DNA of 64,000 nt, taken from assembly GCF_048403405.1 (NCBI RefSeq), contig NZ_CP183129.1; one strand, given 5' to 3'. The stretch's first letter is position 1; the number at the start of each line of letters is the position of its first letter. Below, in pieces: positions 5,194 through 21,587 of this stretch. The notes beneath the pieces are model-generated. The model saw only the letters and a program-made list of their open reading frames with translations. It ran no database searches and was not told the DNA's origin. Made by a program: the position numbers and the translations under genes. This stretch comes from Escherichia coli (GTDB lineage: Bacteria; Pseudomonadota; Gammaproteobacteria; Enterobacterales; Enterobacteriaceae).

Positions 5194-5202
5194 GTCCATA
5201 AG

Positions 5203-5436
5203 AAAGCCCCTCCGGAGAGGGGCTAAAGCCGCGTATCTGTATCATCATGCACATGGTGCCGGGTGCCTCCCGGTGAGTTCAGCCCGGTGCCACTAAACCC
5301 GCGTCATTCTCGTTTTGATAATCAGAGATTATACCGTCACCAGTCGCCCCTCCGCTCAGGGGGATTCACCATGCGAAATTTTTTTAACAAATGCCCAGTC
5401 TGACAGGCAACTGTCAACTTACTGAATTGTGAGCAA
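5203..5436 (-). repeat. copy 1 of a tandem ~220-bp structured element (candidate sRNA unit)
   Basis: Direct repeat of 5690..5904 (roughly three-quarters identity by eye); shares the hairpins agcccctc-cgga-gaggggct and ggtgccgggtgcctcccggtga; on the minus strand the unit ends in hairpin plus T-tract. Confidence 0.6.
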
Positions 5437-5689
5437 CATAGCATTTAACGGGGAACCTGTTTTCTGCAGTAAAAAGGCCCACCGGAGCGGATGGGCCTGG
5501 AAGGATAGCGGTCATGTGATGCCGGTTTCCCGGTAACTCAGCACCGGTATCTGAGTCAACGTTTTCTCTACTGGGTCATTTCCGATACGCCCTGCCTGCT
5601 GACAGGCTTTCATCACATCTGAAAATATAGCACCCTGACTGATACTGTAGTACCTAAGGTTCCAGAAACTGTGATGTATCCGGCACAGA

Positions 5690-5904
5690 AAAGCCCCTCC
5701 GGAGAGGGGCTGGAGAGTGGCGCTATGTGCCATTGCATGGTGCCGGGTGCCTCCCGGTGAATTCAGTACCAGCACCTGAATCCGCGATTATCCCATATAC
5801 CTACTCGCTGATTGCCCCTCCGCACAGGGGGATTCACCATGCCAGTTTCTTTTAACAAACTCCCCGCAAACCAGACAACAGTCAACCGCCTGAATTGTGA
5901 GACA
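5690..5904 (-). repeat. copy 2 of the tandem structured element
   Basis: Same hairpin set and shared segments (gggggattcaccatgc, tgaattgtgag) as copy 1. Confidence 0.6.
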
Positions 5905-5945
5905 TTTAAAAAAAAGCCCGCAAAAGCGAGCCAGGGAAAATAAGT

Positions 5946-6022
5946 GTGGCGCGTTGTACTGGATTCGAACCAGTGACCGATTGCTTAGAAGGCAATTGCT
6001 CTGTCCGGCTGAGCTAACAACG
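5946..6022 (-). tRNA. argO: tRNA-Arg (anticodon UCU), phage argO-like
   Basis: Reverse complement folds as canonical cloverleaf: acceptor GCGTTGT/ACAACGC, anticodon loop CTTCTAA, T-loop TTCGAAT, 3' CCA. Confidence 0.85.
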
Positions 6023-6035
6023 CAGGATACAGATA

Positions 6036-6113
6036 ATGGACCGCCTTCGGGGACCCGAACTCCGCGCAACCAGCTTCGAAGGCTGGCGCTCTTTCCTGAT
6101 GAGCTAATGGCGG
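6036..6113 (-). tRNA. argN: tRNA-Arg-like (anticodon UCG inferred), phage argN-like, possibly degenerate
   Basis: Cloverleaf with anticodon stem CCAGC/GCTGG and loop CTTCGAA, but one acceptor mismatch, one T-stem mismatch and atypical T-loop TTCGGGT. Confidence 0.6.
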
Positions 6114-6120
6114 TATGTGA

Positions 6121-6196
6121 TGGTGGCCCTTGCTGGATTTGAACCAGCGACCTGGCGATTATGAGTCGCTCGCTCTCACCACTGAGCTAAAGGGCC
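6121..6196 (-). tRNA. ileZ: tRNA-Ile2-like (anticodon CAU), phage ileZ-like
   Basis: Reverse complement GGCCCTTTAGCTCAGTGGTGAGAGCG...CTCATAA...TTCAAATCCAGCAAGGGCCACCA closely resembles E. coli ileX as recalled. Confidence 0.85.
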
Positions 6197-10992: not shown

Positions 10993-11077
10993 CCCTCTTC
11001 TCCCTGCGCGCTACTTAAGTATTTTTGATTCTATTCTGGCACCGTCCAAAACTTCAAACACGTTGAAAATAAAAACA

Positions 11078-11100
11078 AAAAACCCGCCGAAGCGGGTATA
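11078..11100 (-). terminator. strong intrinsic terminator ending the two-gene cassette
   Basis: Minus strand acccgc-ttcg-gcgggt then ttttttgtttttatttt; same hairpin core as 12921..12938. Confidence 0.7.
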
Positions 11101-11101
11101 C

Positions 11102-12208
11102 TCAAACAATCTGGAAAATATTTCTTGGATTTGTAATAGGTCTGTTGATGGAGAACAACTCACGAATTAAATCTTGGCTCAAGCCAGTTTTCATAAGAAT
11201 TCTTAGCCAGGTTGCATCATCCAGCATTTCAATCGCCTCGGCCAGCATGCCGGGTTCTTCAGGGCGCAAAAGTTCATCACCAGGTTCAACTCTCGTATAC
11301 CCTCTGGAATTAAGATGCATATAGCCAGTTCTTGCCTGTTCCTGGGTCAATAAGCCTAATGCGCTGGCTCGATAAATACACATTTTAAGGCTGATTTTCC
11401 ATCTAAGTTTAAATTCAACCAGAGCATTCCAGTCGAATTGCTTACCTCGTATTCGTGGAAATTCTTTAATGAAAGATAACCTGGGAACTAATAAGGCGCT
11501 CGAAAAGTGATCGGCTTGTGATTCCGTAAGTTTATCACCTGTCGTTATGCCCTCATGCATTACTAAATGCCCTAATTCATGACCTAAATCAGAGCGAAAT
11601 CTACATATGCTTTTTTTAACATTGTTCCTGATGATAACAGGCCTGTTATTGTGAACAGTAAAAGCATCAACACGATCATCGACTCCCGTAACATGCGCAA
11701 CGATTACCCCTAAACTCTCCGCCAATTTAACCATTGATGATATAGGGCCAAGACCTAAATTCCAGGCACGGCGACAATCTTCTGCCACTCGCTCAATATC
11801 ATTCGGAGTAAGTAATTCAGCCCCTGGGTGCTCCGGTATGTTAACGTCAGGAAATTCGATTTCACCTTCAACAGCAGAAATTATAATATTAAGAATCTCA
11901 GCCCTGGCCAATACACTATTAGTCAGCGTTTGAGTCCTGGACTTCTTACTCCGAAAATGGCAGACATCACTTTCCAGAGCGTATTTTCGTTCAGTAAAAA
12001 GAAAACTGGACTTAATCATAAGCGCTGAAGATATTAACTCAAGACATTGCTCCGATGGCCTGCACCCCTTCTCCAGTTTGCTAACGAATTGCTTTGTCTT
12101 GCCAATTTTTTCGGCTAACTCTTCACAAGAAAGCCCAACAGCCATTCTCGCTAGTTTGAGCTTATCACCCCGATACTCAGTGAAGTTATTCACCTGATGT
12201 TCCATCAC
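11102..12208 (-). CDS. HTH (XRE-family) + ImmA/IrrE-type M78 zinc metallopeptidase fusion protein
   Basis: N-terminal helix-turn-helix (LKLARMAVGLSCEELAEKIGKTKQFVSKLEKG); C-terminal HExxH (HELGHLVMHE); start overlaps the upstream gene by 23 bp. Confidence 0.8.
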   Translation of the reverse strand: MMEHQVNNFTEYRGDKLKLARMAVGLSCEELAEKIGKTKQFVSKLEKGCRPSEQCLELISSALMIKSSFLFTERKYALESDVCHFRSKKSRTQTLTNSVLARAEILNIIISAVEGEIEFPDVNIPEHPGAELLTPNDIERVAEDCRRAWNLGLGPISSMVKLAESLGVIVAHVTGVDDRVDAFTVHNNRPVIIRNNVKKSICRFRSDLGHELGHLVMHEGITTGDKLTESQADHFSSALLVPRLSFIKEFPRIRGKQFDWNALVEFKLRWKISLKMCIYRASALGLLTQEQARTGYMHLNSRGYTRVEPGDELLRPEEPGMLAEAIEMLDDATWLRILMKTGLSQDLIRELFSINRPITNPRNIFQIV

Positions 12209-12836
12209 TGCTCACATCCAAATCTTTATCCTTCGTACGCCGACGAAGAGGCACCTTATTAATCTCCGCTTCGTCAGGGAGTGTGTTATAATCAAGAGGC
12301 ATAAGCGGCATCGATGCTGTAGATTGATGAGAAACTATACTAATCTGAGCACCATAAGTATTAAATCCAACAAGAGCTACCTCCCAACGAGGCAGTGTGG
12401 ACTCTAATTCACCATCGCCCTCTTCGGATAAAAAAGGCTCAGCTATGACTCGCCATGTAATATCTTGCTCAGCCTCAACATCACCAAACAATGAGAGCTG
12501 CTCATACTCTACTTTATTTCGACGCAGACGATGTTTCTTTTTGGGGTTATTAATGCAATCTTTGGTAAATTGTAGCGGAACTTTATTTAAAGCAACTACA
12601 TAGTCCAACCCCTTGGAAATCATCTCAAGGCCAGGAATTGCATCTTCATTTTGAATAAGATGATTTCTGACCCAATCATAAGCCCTTACACCTTCAGACC
12701 AGTTGCTGTCTAATGCGTGCTTATGATAGTACAGCTGCTCAAGTACGTTAGCGATCTCCGCCAACAAGTGGCGAACATAGTTTTCAGCAAGATAAGGTTG
12801 AAATTCCCAACAAGGAGCTAACTGATTTTCATTCAT
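12186..12836 (-). CDS. hypothetical 216-aa protein with no recognisable domain, first gene of the cassette
   Basis: ATG at 12836; basic patch NPKKKHRLRRNK, acidic C-terminus; translationally coupled to the HTH-peptidase gene. Confidence 0.6.
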   Translation of the reverse strand: MNENQLAPCWEFQPYLAENYVRHLLAEIANVLEQLYYHKHALDSNWSEGVRAYDWVRNHLIQNEDAIPGLEMISKGLDYVVALNKVPLQFTKDCINNPKKKHRLRRNKVEYEQLSLFGDVEAEQDITWRVIAEPFLSEEGDGELESTLPRWEVALVGFNTYGAQISIVSHQSTASMPLMPLDYNTLPDEAEINKVPLRRRTKDKDLDVSSDGTSGE

Positions 12837-12861
12837 TTCAAGTTTCGCTTTTTTTAGAATT

Positions 12862-12890
12862 CGTAAACCACATATTTTCGCATTTTTCTA
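12862..12890 (-). promoter_or_regulatory. candidate sigma70 promoter for the two-gene cassette
   Basis: Minus strand TTGACA, 17-bp spacer, AAATAT, about 25 bp upstream of the ATG. Confidence 0.4.
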
Positions 12891-12914
12891 TTTTTGTCAA
12901 CCAGACTAATGCAA

Positions 12915-12942
12915 AAACCCGCCGAAGCGGGTTAAGTGCGGG
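12915..12942 (-). terminator. intrinsic terminator downstream of hokD
   Basis: Minus strand aacccgc-ttcg-gcgggtt then tttgc; same hairpin core as 11081..11096. Confidence 0.55.
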
Positions 12943-13001
12943 TGCGTTGAGGATGCCTGGCACATCAGAGGTGGCGGGAGATTACTCCCCCGCCGGGTCT
13001 C

Positions 13002-13157
13002 TTACTCCTCAGGTTCGTAAGCTGTGAAGACAGCGACCTCCGTCTGGCCGGTTCGGATTCGTACCTCGCAGAGGTCTTTCCTCGTTACCAGTGCCGTCAC
13101 AATGACGGTTAAACAGATGACGATCAGGGCGATTAACATCGCCTTTTGCTGCTTCAT
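13002..13157 (-). CDS. hokD: Hok/Gef-family type I toxin (HokD/RelF-like), with overlapping mok-like leader ORF to 13214
   Basis: MKQQKAMLIALIVICLTVIVTALVTRKDLCEVRIRTGQTEVAVFTAYEPEE matches HokD as recalled. Confidence 0.85.
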   Translation of the reverse strand: MKQQKAMLIALIVICLTVIVTALVTRKDLCEVRIRTGQTEVAVFTAYEPEE

Positions 13158-13394
13158 AGCCTGCTTCCCCTTGCCTTTCGGCACGTAAGAGGCTAACCTA
13201 CATTTGTGAGACATAGATTGGGCCTCAGATTAATGTTAAGCGTCTTGCAGGACGCGAAATGTTAACTGGGGCTTTTCTCTATCTGCCTTTCAGTGTTCAT
13301 GCCTGAGACAGATAGCCTCAAGCACCCGCAGCCATTCTACTTAACTCACGTCACCTCGCCAATATGAAATCAATCAGAAAGGTGATCCATAAAA

Positions 13395-14081
13395 TCACTC
13401 CTTCTCTTCTTTTCCGTAGTGGAGTTGGCCAATTTTGATAAGAGGGCGTCCCTGAGATTTGCGGTGTAGATTGGTATCGCGCAGAGAATACACACAGCCA
13501 CAATATTCCTGCTGATAGAATTTTTCGCGCTTGCTGATTTCAATCATACGGGACGAGCCGCCCTGCTTGCGCCAGTTATAATCCCAGTACACCATACCCG
13601 GATAATGCGCAACAGCTCGCCGCCCACACTCGTTAACCTGCTGCATATTTTTCCAGCGTGAAATGCCCAGTGAACTGCTGATCACACTGAAACCATTTTC
13701 AGCAGCGTACAACGCTGTCCGCTCAAAACGCATGTCAAAACACATGGTACAACGGATCCCCCTCTCAGGCTCCCATTCCATTCCTTTGGCACGTTCAAAC
13801 CAGTTGTCGGTGTCGTAATCAGCATCGATAAACGGCACGCCGTGTTGTTCAGCAAAGCGAATATTTTCATCCTTACGAATTAAATACTCTTTCTGAGGAT
13901 GAATGTTCGGGTTGTAGAAAAAGATGGTGTAGTCGATTCCCGAGGCCTGAAGCGCCTCCATCACTTCACCGGAACATGGAGCACAGCAAGAGTGCAGTAG
14001 TAGTTTGTTTGCCCCGTTTGGGAGCTCCAATTTAGGCCGTTTGAAATCAGCAATAGTCATAAATATTTTTATTGGGGTCAT
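13395..14081 (-). CDS. QueH-like (DUF208) epoxyqueuosine reductase homologue
   Basis: HSCCAPCS motif plus additional conserved Cys; 228 aa from ATG 14081; the ORF-track start at 14123 is a TTG inside the IS150 inverted repeat and is rejected. Confidence 0.7.
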
Positions 14082-14135
14082 GAAAATAGCACAGAGTGTA
14101 GCATCAGAGTGTACTGACCCCAAAAAGTTGGACAG

Positions 14136-14987
14136 TTAAACACGAGGCATATAGGTCTGATTCCGATATTCAATTGGAGTCAGACCTTTTAATTTCAGGC
14201 TAATTCTTCTGCTGTTGTAGTATTCAATATATTCCGTAACAGCATCCTTCAGTTCGCTTATATTACTGAACTCATCAAGATAAAAACACTCCGACTTTAA
14301 GGTTCCAAAGAAACACTCCACCACAGCATTATCCAGACAATTGCCTTTTCTGGACATGCTTTGTTTAATACCATGTTCTTTAAGGATATTTTGATATCTT
14401 CTCATACGATACTGCCATCCCTGGTCAGAGTGCAGAACAGGATGCTCGTGAGGATTAAGCTTTTTGAATGCCTGATCGAGCATATTCTCAACCATGTTCA
14501 TCACTGGTCTTTCCGAAAGGCTGTAAGAAATAACTTCGTTGTTGAAGAGATCTATTACTGGAGACAAATACAGCTTGCGCCCATTGACTGCAAATTCAGT
14601 AACATCGGTAACCCACTTCTCGTTTGGCCGCGTAGCCTTGAAATCTCTTTGGAGAACATTAGGGGCGGTTTGCCCTACCTCTCCTCTGTAAGAGCGGTAT
14701 CGCTTGACCTTAATCGCTGCTTTAAGTGAGAGGGTTCCCATCAGGCGCTGAACAGCTTTATGGTTAATCTGTTTCCCTTCTCGATGAAGAGACAGCGTTA
14801 CCCTACGGTATCCGTATCGGCCTCTATTCTCGTGATAAATCTCACTAATACGCTTTTTAACGTCCGCATACTTGTCAGGCTTGCTGAGAGCCTTTAGATG
14901 ATAATAAAACGTACTGCGCGGTATCTCCGCAGCCCTGAGAAGCTCATCAAGAGGATAAAACTGCCTTAGCTCGTTGAGTACTTTCAC
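14136..14987 (-). CDS. insK: IS150 transposase OrfB (integrase/DDE domain)
   Basis: 283 aa; matches InsK as recalled; overlaps OrfA in the -1 frame. Confidence 0.9.
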
Positions 14988-15505
14988 TTTTTCGTGGGAT
15001 GAGCTAAGGCTTTCAGCTTTTTTAGATACATAAGCCGCGTTTCAAGAAATCGAACTTGCCTTTCAAGATCCTCAATGCGTCGGTCTTTTGACAGCTCCAA
15101 TGCTGATGCCGCTTTTTCTGGATCAACTGATATTGCAATGTTTCTTTTGGTGCCAATCTTGAGCGCGCGTAAACCAGCTTCTCCGCGCTCTTCATAGACC
15201 TTCAGCCACCTGGCTACAGAACCACTACCAGCAAGCATAAAGTGAGCAGCAGCCTGATTAAGGGACATGTGCTGCTCGATCACAGCTTTCACGACCTTAA
15301 TACGCAACTCTGGATCAGCACTAACGCCTTTAGGTTTGGGAATTAAACCTTTTTCTCCATGTTTTTCATAGAGGGCAACCCATGTCCTGACCTGGGTTCG
15401 GGGGACACCAAAACGTGCCGAGATGATCCTGTAACCATCATCAGTTGTGAAGTAGTGATTCACGACTTCAAGGCGCTTTTCAAAAGGGTATTTTGGCTTT
15501 GACAT
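14984..15505 (-). CDS. insJ: IS150 transposase OrfA (HTH)
   Basis: 173 aa; MSKPKYPFEKRLEVVNHYF... matches InsJ as recalled. Confidence 0.9.
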   Translation of the reverse strand: MSKPKYPFEKRLEVVNHYFTTDDGYRIISARFGVPRTQVRTWVALYEKHGEKGLIPKPKGVSADPELRIKVVKAVIEQHMSLNQAAAHFMLAGSGSVARWLKVYEERGEAGLRALKIGTKRNIAISVDPEKAASALELSKDRRIEDLERQVRFLETRLMYLKKLKALAHPTKK

Positions 15506-21529: not shown

Positions 21530-21587
21530 TTTCTGGTGACATTTGGCGGTATCAGTTTTACTCCGTGACTGCTCTGCCGCCCTTTTT
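21530..21587 (+). ncRNA. dicF: DicF small RNA
   Basis: tttctggtgacatttggcggtatcagttttactccgtgactgctctgccgcccttttt is near-identical to K-12 DicF as recalled, including terminator hairpin. Confidence 0.85.

Follow-up and report, generated by a model that had tools for sequence, protein, structure and literature searches.

Organization of the locus

The window, a stretch of 64,000 nucleotides from contig NZ_CP183129.1 of an Escherichia coli genome (assembly GCF_048403405.1), contains a RosmerTA cassette, in which two overlapping minus-strand genes are flanked on both sides by identical 20-nt terminator hairpins. The first gene, rmrT (gene 1; 12186-12836, minus strand), encodes a 216-aa candidate toxin of the Vmi480-type RmrT family, and the second, rmrA (gene 2), encodes a candidate antitoxin/regulator. 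When rmrA is started at the ATG chosen by RefSeq, it extends over 11102-12205 and encodes 367 aa; when it is started at the GTG adjacent to this ATG, it extends over 11102-12208 and encodes 368 aa. From this follows that the two genes overlap by 20 bp in the former case and by 23 bp in the latter, so that the overlap of 23 bp in the first-pass annotation of this DNA is valid with the GTG start but not with that of RefSeq.

RmrA joins an XRE-type HTH domain (12020-12160, minus strand; Pfam HTH_3, E 2e-6, residues 17-63 of the 368-aa form) to an ImmA/IrrE-type M78 metallopeptidase domain (11363-11680, minus strand; Pfam Peptidase_M78, E 1.2e-10, residues 177-282), and the HELGH motif at 11567-11581 (minus strand) is read off the sequence as intact. 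The fusion of an XRE HTH with an HExxH peptidase of ImmA/IrrE type, proposed earlier, is in this way confirmed. In the PDB, the HTH has sequence matches to SinR and to the 434 repressor.

The hairpin sequence AAAAACCCGCCGAAGCGGGT is an exact direct repeat of 20 nt, located at 11078-11097 and 12913-12932, and two matches to it occurred in 0 of 100 shuffles of the window. A hairpin core shared by the two ends had been noted before as 19 bp at 11080-11096 and 12921-12938; the repeat is real, but its length and positions are those given here. Both copies score as intrinsic terminators on the minus strand. The upstream copy (12913-12932), with a terminator-like site at 12933-12916, is the hokD intrinsic terminator and defines the upstream boundary of the insert. 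At the downstream copy a terminator-like site (11097-11082) is followed by TTTTTGTTTT, and the hairpin with its T-run (11062-11097, minus strand) is the terminator of the cassette and its downstream boundary, which agrees with the earlier view that the cassette ends in an intrinsic terminator. In the cassettes of Enterobacter and of E. coli KL53, the terminal hairpin shares the stem ACCCGC/GCGGGT but differs in its loop.

Upstream of rmrT, the region 12837-12902 (minus strand) contains a candidate promoter and a candidate operator. The -35 box of the promoter is a perfect TTGACA (12900-12895), but the -10 box, 17 nt beyond it, is a poor AAATAT (12877-12872), and the promoter was not called in a scan for consensus promoters. 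The claim that the cassette has a sigma70-like promoter of its own is therefore favored by the -35 box and by the conservation of the region across genera, and weakened by the -10 box and the negative scan. Two GTTkAC boxes, each followed by GCGAAA, are found at 12901-12896 and 12868-12863, 33 nt apart, and the whole region is conserved in an alignment of E. coli, Enterobacter, Serratia, Xenorhabdus, and Aeromonas. When 307 kb were scanned for pairs of GTTkAC boxes with a spacing of 30-35 nt, 10 of the 11 pairs found were located upstream of rmrT homologues. The tandem GTTkAC repeat over the promoter is, as judged from these sequences, a candidate operator for RmrA.

Assignment of the gene pair to RosmerTA

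A search of the cassette with defence-system profiles, asked for beforehand, identifies the pair as RosmerTA in PADLOC. Gene 2 matches the RmrA model PDLC03943 (E 6.2e-105, residues 12-351) and 13 further RmrA models, so that the RosmerTA antitoxin architecture ascribed to it, with an N-terminal HTH and an M78 Zn-peptidase, is accompanied by an RmrA profile match. Gene 1, which adjoins rmrA in the same orientation, matches the RmrT model PDLC03929 (E 4.6e-25, 5-195 of 198 profile positions), and this model is also matched by eight distant members of the gene 1 family. Gene 1 further matches PHROG 5786 (E 8e-85) and has no match in Pfam or NCBIfam. The description of gene 1 as domain-less thus holds for Pfam, but not when the RmrT and PHROG models are taken into account. 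Its description as a novel effector must be given up, since the RmrT model that it matches already existed and a toxin of its family, the Vmi480 type, was validated in 2015 (PMC4671572). Its role as effector partner of the HTH-peptidase gene is supported by the RmrT profile match. Two findings had been named in advance as speaking against the whole reading, namely that gene 1 is a phage structural or regulatory protein or that the cassette is ubiquitous in its prophage lineage, and neither was made.

The locus is, in other words, of an already catalogued type, which standard defence finders would call Rosmer, and because they already flag it, the cassette is modest as a discovery. A literature search gave no paper naming WP_001004956.1 (gene 1) or WP_000401168.1 (gene 2).

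To characterize the fold of RmrT, two AF2 models were computed: the first, from an alignment of 13 close homologues, has a pLDDT of 63, and the second, from an alignment of 62 sequences, has a pLDDT of 85. By the model, RmrT is a soluble alpha/beta protein. Foldseek gives no match in the PDB at E <= 1e-3 for the gene 1 model, a sequence-profile search of the PDB gives no match, and the matches in AFDB50 bring no annotated function, nearly all of them being named 'Uncharacterized protein'. A reading of gene 1 as a nuclease was dropped, because its conserved residues form no PD-(D/E)XK motif, position 89 being R, Q, or K.

The cassette as an optional insert

The cassette is carried by 236 of 5426 complete E. 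coli genomes. The comparison with prophages lacking it, suggested in the first-pass annotation, reveals precise empty sites in collinear prophages, K-12 Qin included, which keep one hairpin at this position. Such single-hairpin sites are present in 66 E. coli genomes in addition to K-12 Qin, and the hairpin left in them is the upstream copy, i.e., the hokD terminator. They bear out the proposal that the cassette is a moron inserted at a terminator. The gene order in K-12 Qin is ydfU-rem-hokD, in agreement with the first-pass annotation. The GC content of the cassette is 41.5%, compared with 46-52% (about 50%) in the flanks.

In 11 other loci, which come from six named genera and two further assemblies, rmrT and rmrA are always adjacent and co-oriented, and the flanks are unrelated. 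The two genes overlap by 8-23 bp in 10 of these loci and have a 5-bp spacer in the remaining one (L016, from Vibrio fluvialis). In lambdoid prophages the pair occurs in nin regions, between Q and the lysis genes, or between the lysis genes and terminase; its other settings are a Mu-like prophage, islands linked to an integrase or a resolvase, and defence islands, where it adjoins SIR2/TIR/Mrr or Kiwa genes. The two-gene unit is in this sense conserved independently of its surroundings, which is a further property of RosmerTA. A tblastn search of 50,697 genomes of isolated phages gave no copy of gene 1, and its two plasmid matches both come from one prophage segment, which is contained in a linear record.

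These data bear on whether the cassette could instead be a regulatory switch, in which the repressor and protease, fused in one protein, would respond to DNA damage and govern either the induction of the prophage or an operon nearby, gene 1 being a regulated product and not a toxin. An XRE repressor and an M78 protease are the domain pair of ImmR and ImmA in ICEBs1 and of CapH and CapP in CBASS, where the protease cleaves the repressor; gene 2 has domain-level PADLOC matches to capP (E 1.6e-14) and capH (E 1.5e-4), and the conserved promoter repeats point to regulation of the operon by RmrA itself. Self-regulation is, however, compatible with a toxin-antitoxin module as well, and in the two switches repressor and protease are encoded separately and act on an element or operon next to them, whereas here they are fused, paired with a toxin candidate, and portable. 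Moreover, the nin region, where the cassette is located, is far removed from the immunity region with its own repressor genes; collinear prophages whose site is otherwise intact lack the cassette; the two-gene unit moves between unrelated elements; and the cassette adjoins neither a CBASS operon nor another operon with a regulated effector. A switch of the ImmR/ImmA or the CapH/CapP type is on these grounds very improbable, and both assignments were rejected.

Relation to Vmi480/Vmi470 and the polarity of the pair

A related pair that has been studied by experiment is Vmi480/Vmi470 from the element MGIVmi1 of Vibrio mimicus, where Vmi480 is lethal to E. coli and Vmi470 rescues the cells (PMC4671572). 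The V. fluvialis locus L016 agrees with what is published on vmi480/vmi470 in the primer sequences, the upstream arm, the N- and C-termini, the 5-bp spacer, and the resolvase neighbour. Gene 1 is 27% identical over its full length (E 1e-17) to P0033, the V. fluvialis near-orthologue of Vmi480, and the likeness of gene 1 to Vmi480 is judged through this near-orthologue together with primer-derived fragments of Vmi480. Gene 2 shares 47% identity (E 1e-123) with the Vmi470-like antitoxin of L016 in an alignment of 357 residues. The sequence comparison assigns gene 1 to the Vmi480 toxin family and gene 2 to the Vmi470 antitoxin family. Gene order is the same, the sizes are similar (198/362 aa in Vibrio and 216/367 aa here), and tandem GTTkAC boxes are found upstream in L016 too. 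The Vibrio pair differs in that it resides in a mobilisable genomic island, not in a prophage, and in that its genes are separated by the 5-bp spacer, where those of the present cassette overlap.

The E. coli prophage pair E101_02645/02644, the members of which are 33% and 42% identical to Vmi480 and Vmi470 and in the presence of which clpP becomes essential (10.1101/2020.05.25.114553), is probably a member of the family of the cassette, when the identities stated by its authors are taken as the basis. The proteins are different ones (WP_001179380.1/WP_000481765.1), and WP_001179380.1, the E101 toxin, did not turn up among the members of the gene 1 family when these were searched by cluster and by accession.

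For the cassette, the opposite polarity must also be considered, in which the HTH-peptidase would be toxic and the 216-aa protein would neutralise it. This polarity was found by Vassallo et al. for PD-lambda-2B/A (PMC9519451), an abortive infection system where the Xre-peptidase is toxic and the first gene rescues, and where a fusion of an Xre-HTH with an ImmA-type peptidase likewise lies downstream of a small partner gene. PD-lambda-2 has, however, three genes, of which the first is HigB-like and the third (P4 antitoxin-like) is required, whereas gene 1 does not resemble HigB and the present locus lacks a third gene. With a gene 1 that matches neither Pfam nor NCBIfam and with terminators that bound a two-gene unit, membership in PD-lambda-2 was rejected. 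In the homologous Vmi480/Vmi470 pair the first gene is toxic, and the HTH-peptidase gene, vmi470, could not be deleted singly (PMC4671572). In E. coli FDAARGOS_1249, further, an IS5 element interrupts gene 1 and leaves gene 2 intact, a single case in which expression of the whole operon may be lost as well. Taken together, this makes the reverse polarity a highly improbable one.

Comparison with other Rosmer-type systems

For RosmerTA of E. coli OLC-716, protection against phage has been verified (Millman 2022, 10.1101/2022.05.11.491447; sequences from its Table S2). This system and the present cassette have in common a toxin-first two-gene operon, an RmrA of about 370 aa with HTH and M78 domains, and the host species. 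Gene 2 and the verified RmrA share 29% identity in an alignment of 300 residues (E 2e-35), in which the HELGH motif and the downstream ExxAD are kept. The toxins, in contrast, show no detectable similarity: BLASTP of gene 1 against the OLC-716 RmrT (239 aa) gives E 7, and hhalign with the gene 1 profile gives probabilities of 0.2% against the single sequence and 1% for profile against profile, the alignment being collinear and not significant. The OLC-716 toxin matches PDLC03935 and gene 1 matches PDLC03929, and an assignment of gene 1 to the OLC-716 toxin subtype was rejected on account of the negative BLASTP and hhalign results.

In RmrTA of Gordonia phage Kita, which is phage-borne and has an ImmA-type antitoxin, protection is narrow in range (PMC10440598). 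The Kita toxin is a transmembrane protein that depolarises the membrane, whereas gene 1 encodes a soluble alpha/beta protein according to the model. RipAB (Spr1630/Spr1629) of Streptococcus pneumoniae is Rosmer-type as well; the toxin is directed at the DnaN sliding clamp, and neutralisation is ClpX-dependent (PMC12795458). The RipAB antitoxin family matches gene 2 with E 1.5e-45, a match that falls short of the curated cut-off, but RipAB is chromosomal, competence-linked, and found in a Gram-positive host.

Proposed mechanism

The cassette is quite probably a RosmerTA (RmrT/RmrA) module that belongs to the Vmi480/Vmi470 subtype, is present in a lambdoid prophage as an optional insert, and works in the following way. 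In the lysogen, both genes would be transcribed from the promoter of the cassette, and the terminators would insulate it on each side. The XRE-HTH of RmrA would bind the tandem GTTkAC...GCGAAA repeats over the -35 box and the start region, the conservation of which suggests autorepression of the operon. RmrT would act as a soluble cytoplasmic toxin of alpha/beta fold that is neutralised by RmrA, as Vmi480 is by Vmi470, and the overlapping reading frames would ensure that RmrA is co-produced with RmrT. Neutralisation may involve the M78 peptidase and a host Clp protease, beyond binding alone; the Clp step is suggested by two other Rosmer-type systems, because the E101 pair makes clpP essential and RipAB needs clpX. 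When a sensitive phage infects, RmrA would be disabled or depleted, by analogy with the two RosmerTA systems that have been challenged with phages, and the freed RmrT could, by the same analogy, arrest or kill the cell before the phage finishes, so that the lysogen population and its prophage are spared.

The response to infection separates this proposed defence module from a plain addiction or selfish toxin-antitoxin pair, which would stabilise the prophage or merely persist and leave other phages unaffected. The experiments made on the toxin subtype itself, with Vmi480/Vmi470 and the E101 pair, demonstrate toxicity, rescue, and Clp dependence but do not concern phage defence (PMC4671572; 10.1101/2020.05.25.114553), phage protection having been demonstrated solely for RosmerTA with other toxins, i.e., those of OLC-716 (10.1101/2022.05.11.491447) and Kita (PMC10440598). 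Stabilisation would also be sensible for a mobilisable genomic island such as that of Vmi480/Vmi470. Against this stands that the same architecture, with RmrA homologues, is phage-protective in both tested cases, and that homologues adjoin Thoeris-like SIR2/TIR genes and Kiwa and occupy classic optional-cargo positions in prophages, placements that are typical for defence cargo. Addiction without defence is therefore fairly unlikely, and the defence module remains the preferred reading.

RosmerTA is a widespread defence family, and the cassette is a tractable E. coli example of one of its subtypes, with exact boundaries, natural empty-site controls such as K-12 Qin, a conserved candidate operator, and an RmrT that is modeled with confidence and that, in the model, resembles nothing characterised. 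It also joins three literatures, on the Vmi480 counter-selection toxin, on the prophage pair that makes clpP essential, and on RosmerTA defence. A more specific form of the mechanism, which is rather unlikely, would have the Vmi480-type RmrT as a toxin of truly new fold, neutralised in a proteolytic relay and not by sequestration: the M78 peptidase would act on RmrT, perhaps at its conserved disordered C-terminal tail, and pass it to ClpXP. The GTTkAC operator would then couple transcription to the same sensor, and a phage that blocks the relay would thereby trigger the system.

Organization of the cassette

The cassette consists of two overlapping genes on the minus strand. Gene 1 (rmrT, the toxin candidate) is an ORF of 216 aa at 12186-12836 (-), and gene 2 (rmrA, the antitoxin or regulator candidate) is an ORF of 367 aa at 11102-12205 (-) when read from the RefSeq ATG, or of 368 aa, to 12208, from the adjacent GTG; the overlap is 20-23 bp, depending on the gene 2 start codon. 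On either side of the pair stands an exact direct repeat of 20 nt, AAAAACCCGCCGAAGCGGGT, at 11078-11097 and 12913-12932 (-); two matches to it occurred in 0 of 100 shuffles of the window. Both copies score as intrinsic terminators on the minus strand, the upstream one being the terminator of hokD and the downstream one terminating the cassette. The first-pass annotation had described two overlapping genes between terminators with a shared hairpin, and this layout was accurate, apart from the coordinates of the second hairpin, which were wrong by a few bases, and the strength of the promoter. The sigma70-like promoter that it assigned to the cassette has a perfect -35 (TTGACA, 12900-12895, -), but the -10, spaced 17 nt from it, is weak (AAATAT, 12877-12872, -), and a consensus promoter scan of the window did not call it, so that the assignment is less clear-cut than proposed.

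About 70 nt 5' of gene 1 can be aligned across five genera. Two GTTkAC boxes lie 31-34 nt apart 5' of rmrT, in the window at 12863-12901 (-), and the sequence after each box is GCGAAA in the enteric loci and TGCAC in Pseudomonas. When the window and ten comparison loci were scanned on both strands (307 kb in total), 10 of the 11 GTTkAC pairs with a spacing of 30-35 nt were found directly 5' of an rmrT homologue, namely in the window and in loci L004, L006, L008, L011, L012, L014, L016, L018 and L020; among the loci, the MAG locus L015 is an exception, its boxes being 19 nt apart. The first box coincides with the -35 and the second is close to the predicted start, and the tandem boxes, overlapping both, are a candidate operator for the HTH of RmrA.

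Relation to RosmerTA

Defence-system profiles match both genes to RosmerTA models. Gene 2 (WP_000401168.1, 'helix-turn-helix domain-containing protein' in RefSeq; PHROG 2439) has the Pfam domains HTH_3 at residues 17-63 and Peptidase_M78 at residues 177-282, with the HELGH motif encoded at 11567-11581 (-), and it matches the PADLOC RmrA model PDLC03943 (E 6.2e-105) as well as 13 other RmrA models. Gene 1 (WP_001004956.1, 'hypothetical protein'; PHROG 5786, function unknown) is domain-less as first described, with no match in Pfam or NCBIfam, but it matches the RmrT model PDLC03929 over almost its full length (E 4.6e-25). In the definition of Millman et al., RosmerTA pairs an antitoxin that is a Zn-peptidase with a toxin whose function is unknown, and the one system that they verified is that of E. 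coli OLC-716 (10.1101/2022.05.11.491447). Compared with the OLC-716 sequences in Table S2 of that work, gene 2 shares 29% identity with RmrA across 300 residues (E 2e-35), and both proteins keep the metal-site motifs, whereas gene 1 has no similarity to RmrT detected by BLASTP or profile comparison (probability 0.2% and 1%), the OLC-716 toxin matching a different model, PDLC03935. From the two PADLOC matches and the homology of gene 2 to OLC-716 RmrA we infer that the locus is RosmerTA by the family's working definition, and from the lack of toxin similarity and the different toxin model that its toxin subtype is other than the phage-verified one. The cassette, in other words, adds a new and uncharacterised member to a known family, at a locus that defence finders would report already; the remaining interest lies in a toxin fold without a characterised match, in its target and trigger, in the candidate operator and in the ready-made natural controls.

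When 1.84 billion representative proteins were searched with a profile, just 69 relatives of gene 1 emerged at E <= 1e-3, mostly of 190-225 aa, and those named belong to Aeromonas, Vibrio, Pseudomonas and Enterobacterales; gene 1 was absent from the isolated phage genomes of the phage collection searched. Its AlphaFold model, made from a 62-sequence alignment, is confident (pLDDT 85.2, pTM 0.75), and comprises a pair of long helices at the N-terminus, a sheet of six strands with two short helices, and a C-terminal tail of low confidence. Foldseek found no match to it in the PDB at E <= 1e-3, and in AFDB50 it found no annotated function, nearly all matches being an 'Uncharacterized protein' of ~200 aa. 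In the tail (residues ~172-216; 12186-12323, -) the block means of model confidence are 50-86, and the motifs LRRR..D.DV..NGTSG are nonetheless conserved among close relatives; the conserved tail could serve as a signal for binding, cleavage or degradation.

A portable insert

Of 5426 complete E. coli genomes, 236 carry the 1815-bp interior of the cassette, 223 of them at >= 99% identity. The GC content of the cassette is 41.5%, against 46-52% in the flanks. A synthetic empty junction, in which a single hairpin joins the left and right flanks, was matched as one piece in 66 genomes, and in the junction alignment these have exactly one hairpin at the empty site. The same single-hairpin empty site lies between rem and hokD in Qin of K-12 MG1655 (L019, 4534-4550), which makes K-12 a natural control host free of the cassette. 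In E. coli KL53 (L018, 3983-5717) a cassette of 80% identity sits in another lambdoid prophage, one that lacks hokD. The KL53 and Enterobacter cassettes end in a hairpin with the stem ACCCGC/GCGGGT and a loop unlike that of the window; across L018, L011 and the window (11078-11097) the loops include TTCG, TATAT and TGCTA. Hairpins with the same stem and different loops fit the earlier proposal of insertion by recombination between similar terminators; the hokD terminator carries this stem too, which may have guided insertion at this site.

Homologous pairs are found in nin regions (Enterobacter, Xenorhabdus), between Q and the holin gene (Serratia), between the lysis genes and terminase near Kiwa (L020, with KwaA/KwaB beside the prophage at 1-819), in a Mu-like prophage (Aeromonas), in islands linked to an integrase or resolvase (Vibrio), and adjoining SIR2/TIR/ThsB-TIR/Mrr (Pseudomonas, L004, CM001513.1, 1-3734). 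No third gene is conserved among the loci compared.

Polarity and proposed mechanism

Luo et al. found that Vmi480 of Vibrio mimicus kills E. coli, that Vmi470 rescues it, and that vmi470 alone cannot be deleted (PMC4671572). The V. fluvialis locus L016, which encodes the Vmi480 near-orthologue P0033, agrees with the published vmi480/vmi470 locus (cf. PMC4671572) in the upstream homology arm, which agrees with the published primer, in gene lengths equal to within one codon, in a 5-bp spacer between the toxin and antitoxin genes, in a resolvase gene upstream on the opposite strand, and in the protein termini (N-terminus MTPKPEFY in P0033, MTKKPEFY in Vmi480; C-termini alike). With P0033 as a stand-in for Vmi480, the match to gene 1 spans the full protein at 27% identity (E 1e-17), and gene 2 shares 47% identity with the antitoxin of L016 (E 1e-123). 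Rousset et al. reported a prophage-borne pair of E. coli, with 33% and 42% identity to Vmi480/470, that renders clpP essential (10.1101/2020.05.25.114553), and the pneumococcal Rosmer pair RipAB is clpX-dependent, with DnaN as toxin target (PMC12795458).

By analogy with the Vmi480/470 experiments, gene 1 would be the toxin and gene 2 the antitoxin. The IS5 element inside gene 1 of E. coli FDAARGOS_1249 (L017, NZ_CP069459.1, 2589-4148), where gene 2 is intact, agrees with this polarity and, as a single case, is what would be expected if gene 1 were the toxic partner and dispensable. The reverse polarity, as in PD-lambda-2 (PMC9519451), and a regulator of the ImmR/ImmA or CapH/CapP kind are both disfavoured, because the pair is homologous to Vmi480/470, lies at a distance from the immunity region, leaves empty sites and is portable. 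On the reading with the most support, the two genes would form a self-regulated operon, insulated by terminators and expressed from the prophage, in which RmrT would be a cytoplasmic toxin restrained by RmrA, the M78 peptidase and host Clp protease probably sharing in the restraint. Phage infection would then free RmrT, with the infection aborted as a result; anti-phage defence by this cassette is suggested by analogy only, and its main rival is a purely selfish toxin-antitoxin module.

Neighbouring genes

The ORF of the hokD toxin, together with the antisense RNA sok (13002-13327, -; Rfam RF01794, 120 bits; sok RNA at 13152-13327), lies directly upstream of the cassette, and two toxin-antitoxin modules thus stand side by side in the prophage. 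Adjoining hokD, and inside the prophage, is a QueH-like ORF (epoxyqueuosine reductase in the FDAARGOS_1249 annotation) followed by IS3-type transposase ORFs (13395-14123 and 14136-15505, both -); given these transposase ORFs, the QueH-like ORF may be a further cargo gene. The stretch from the late regulatory region to the lysis genes contains two copies of the STnc100 sRNA and three tRNA genes, with a DicF sRNA further along (5194-6196, -, and 21531-21582, +), all of which is ordinary for this type of lambdoid prophage.
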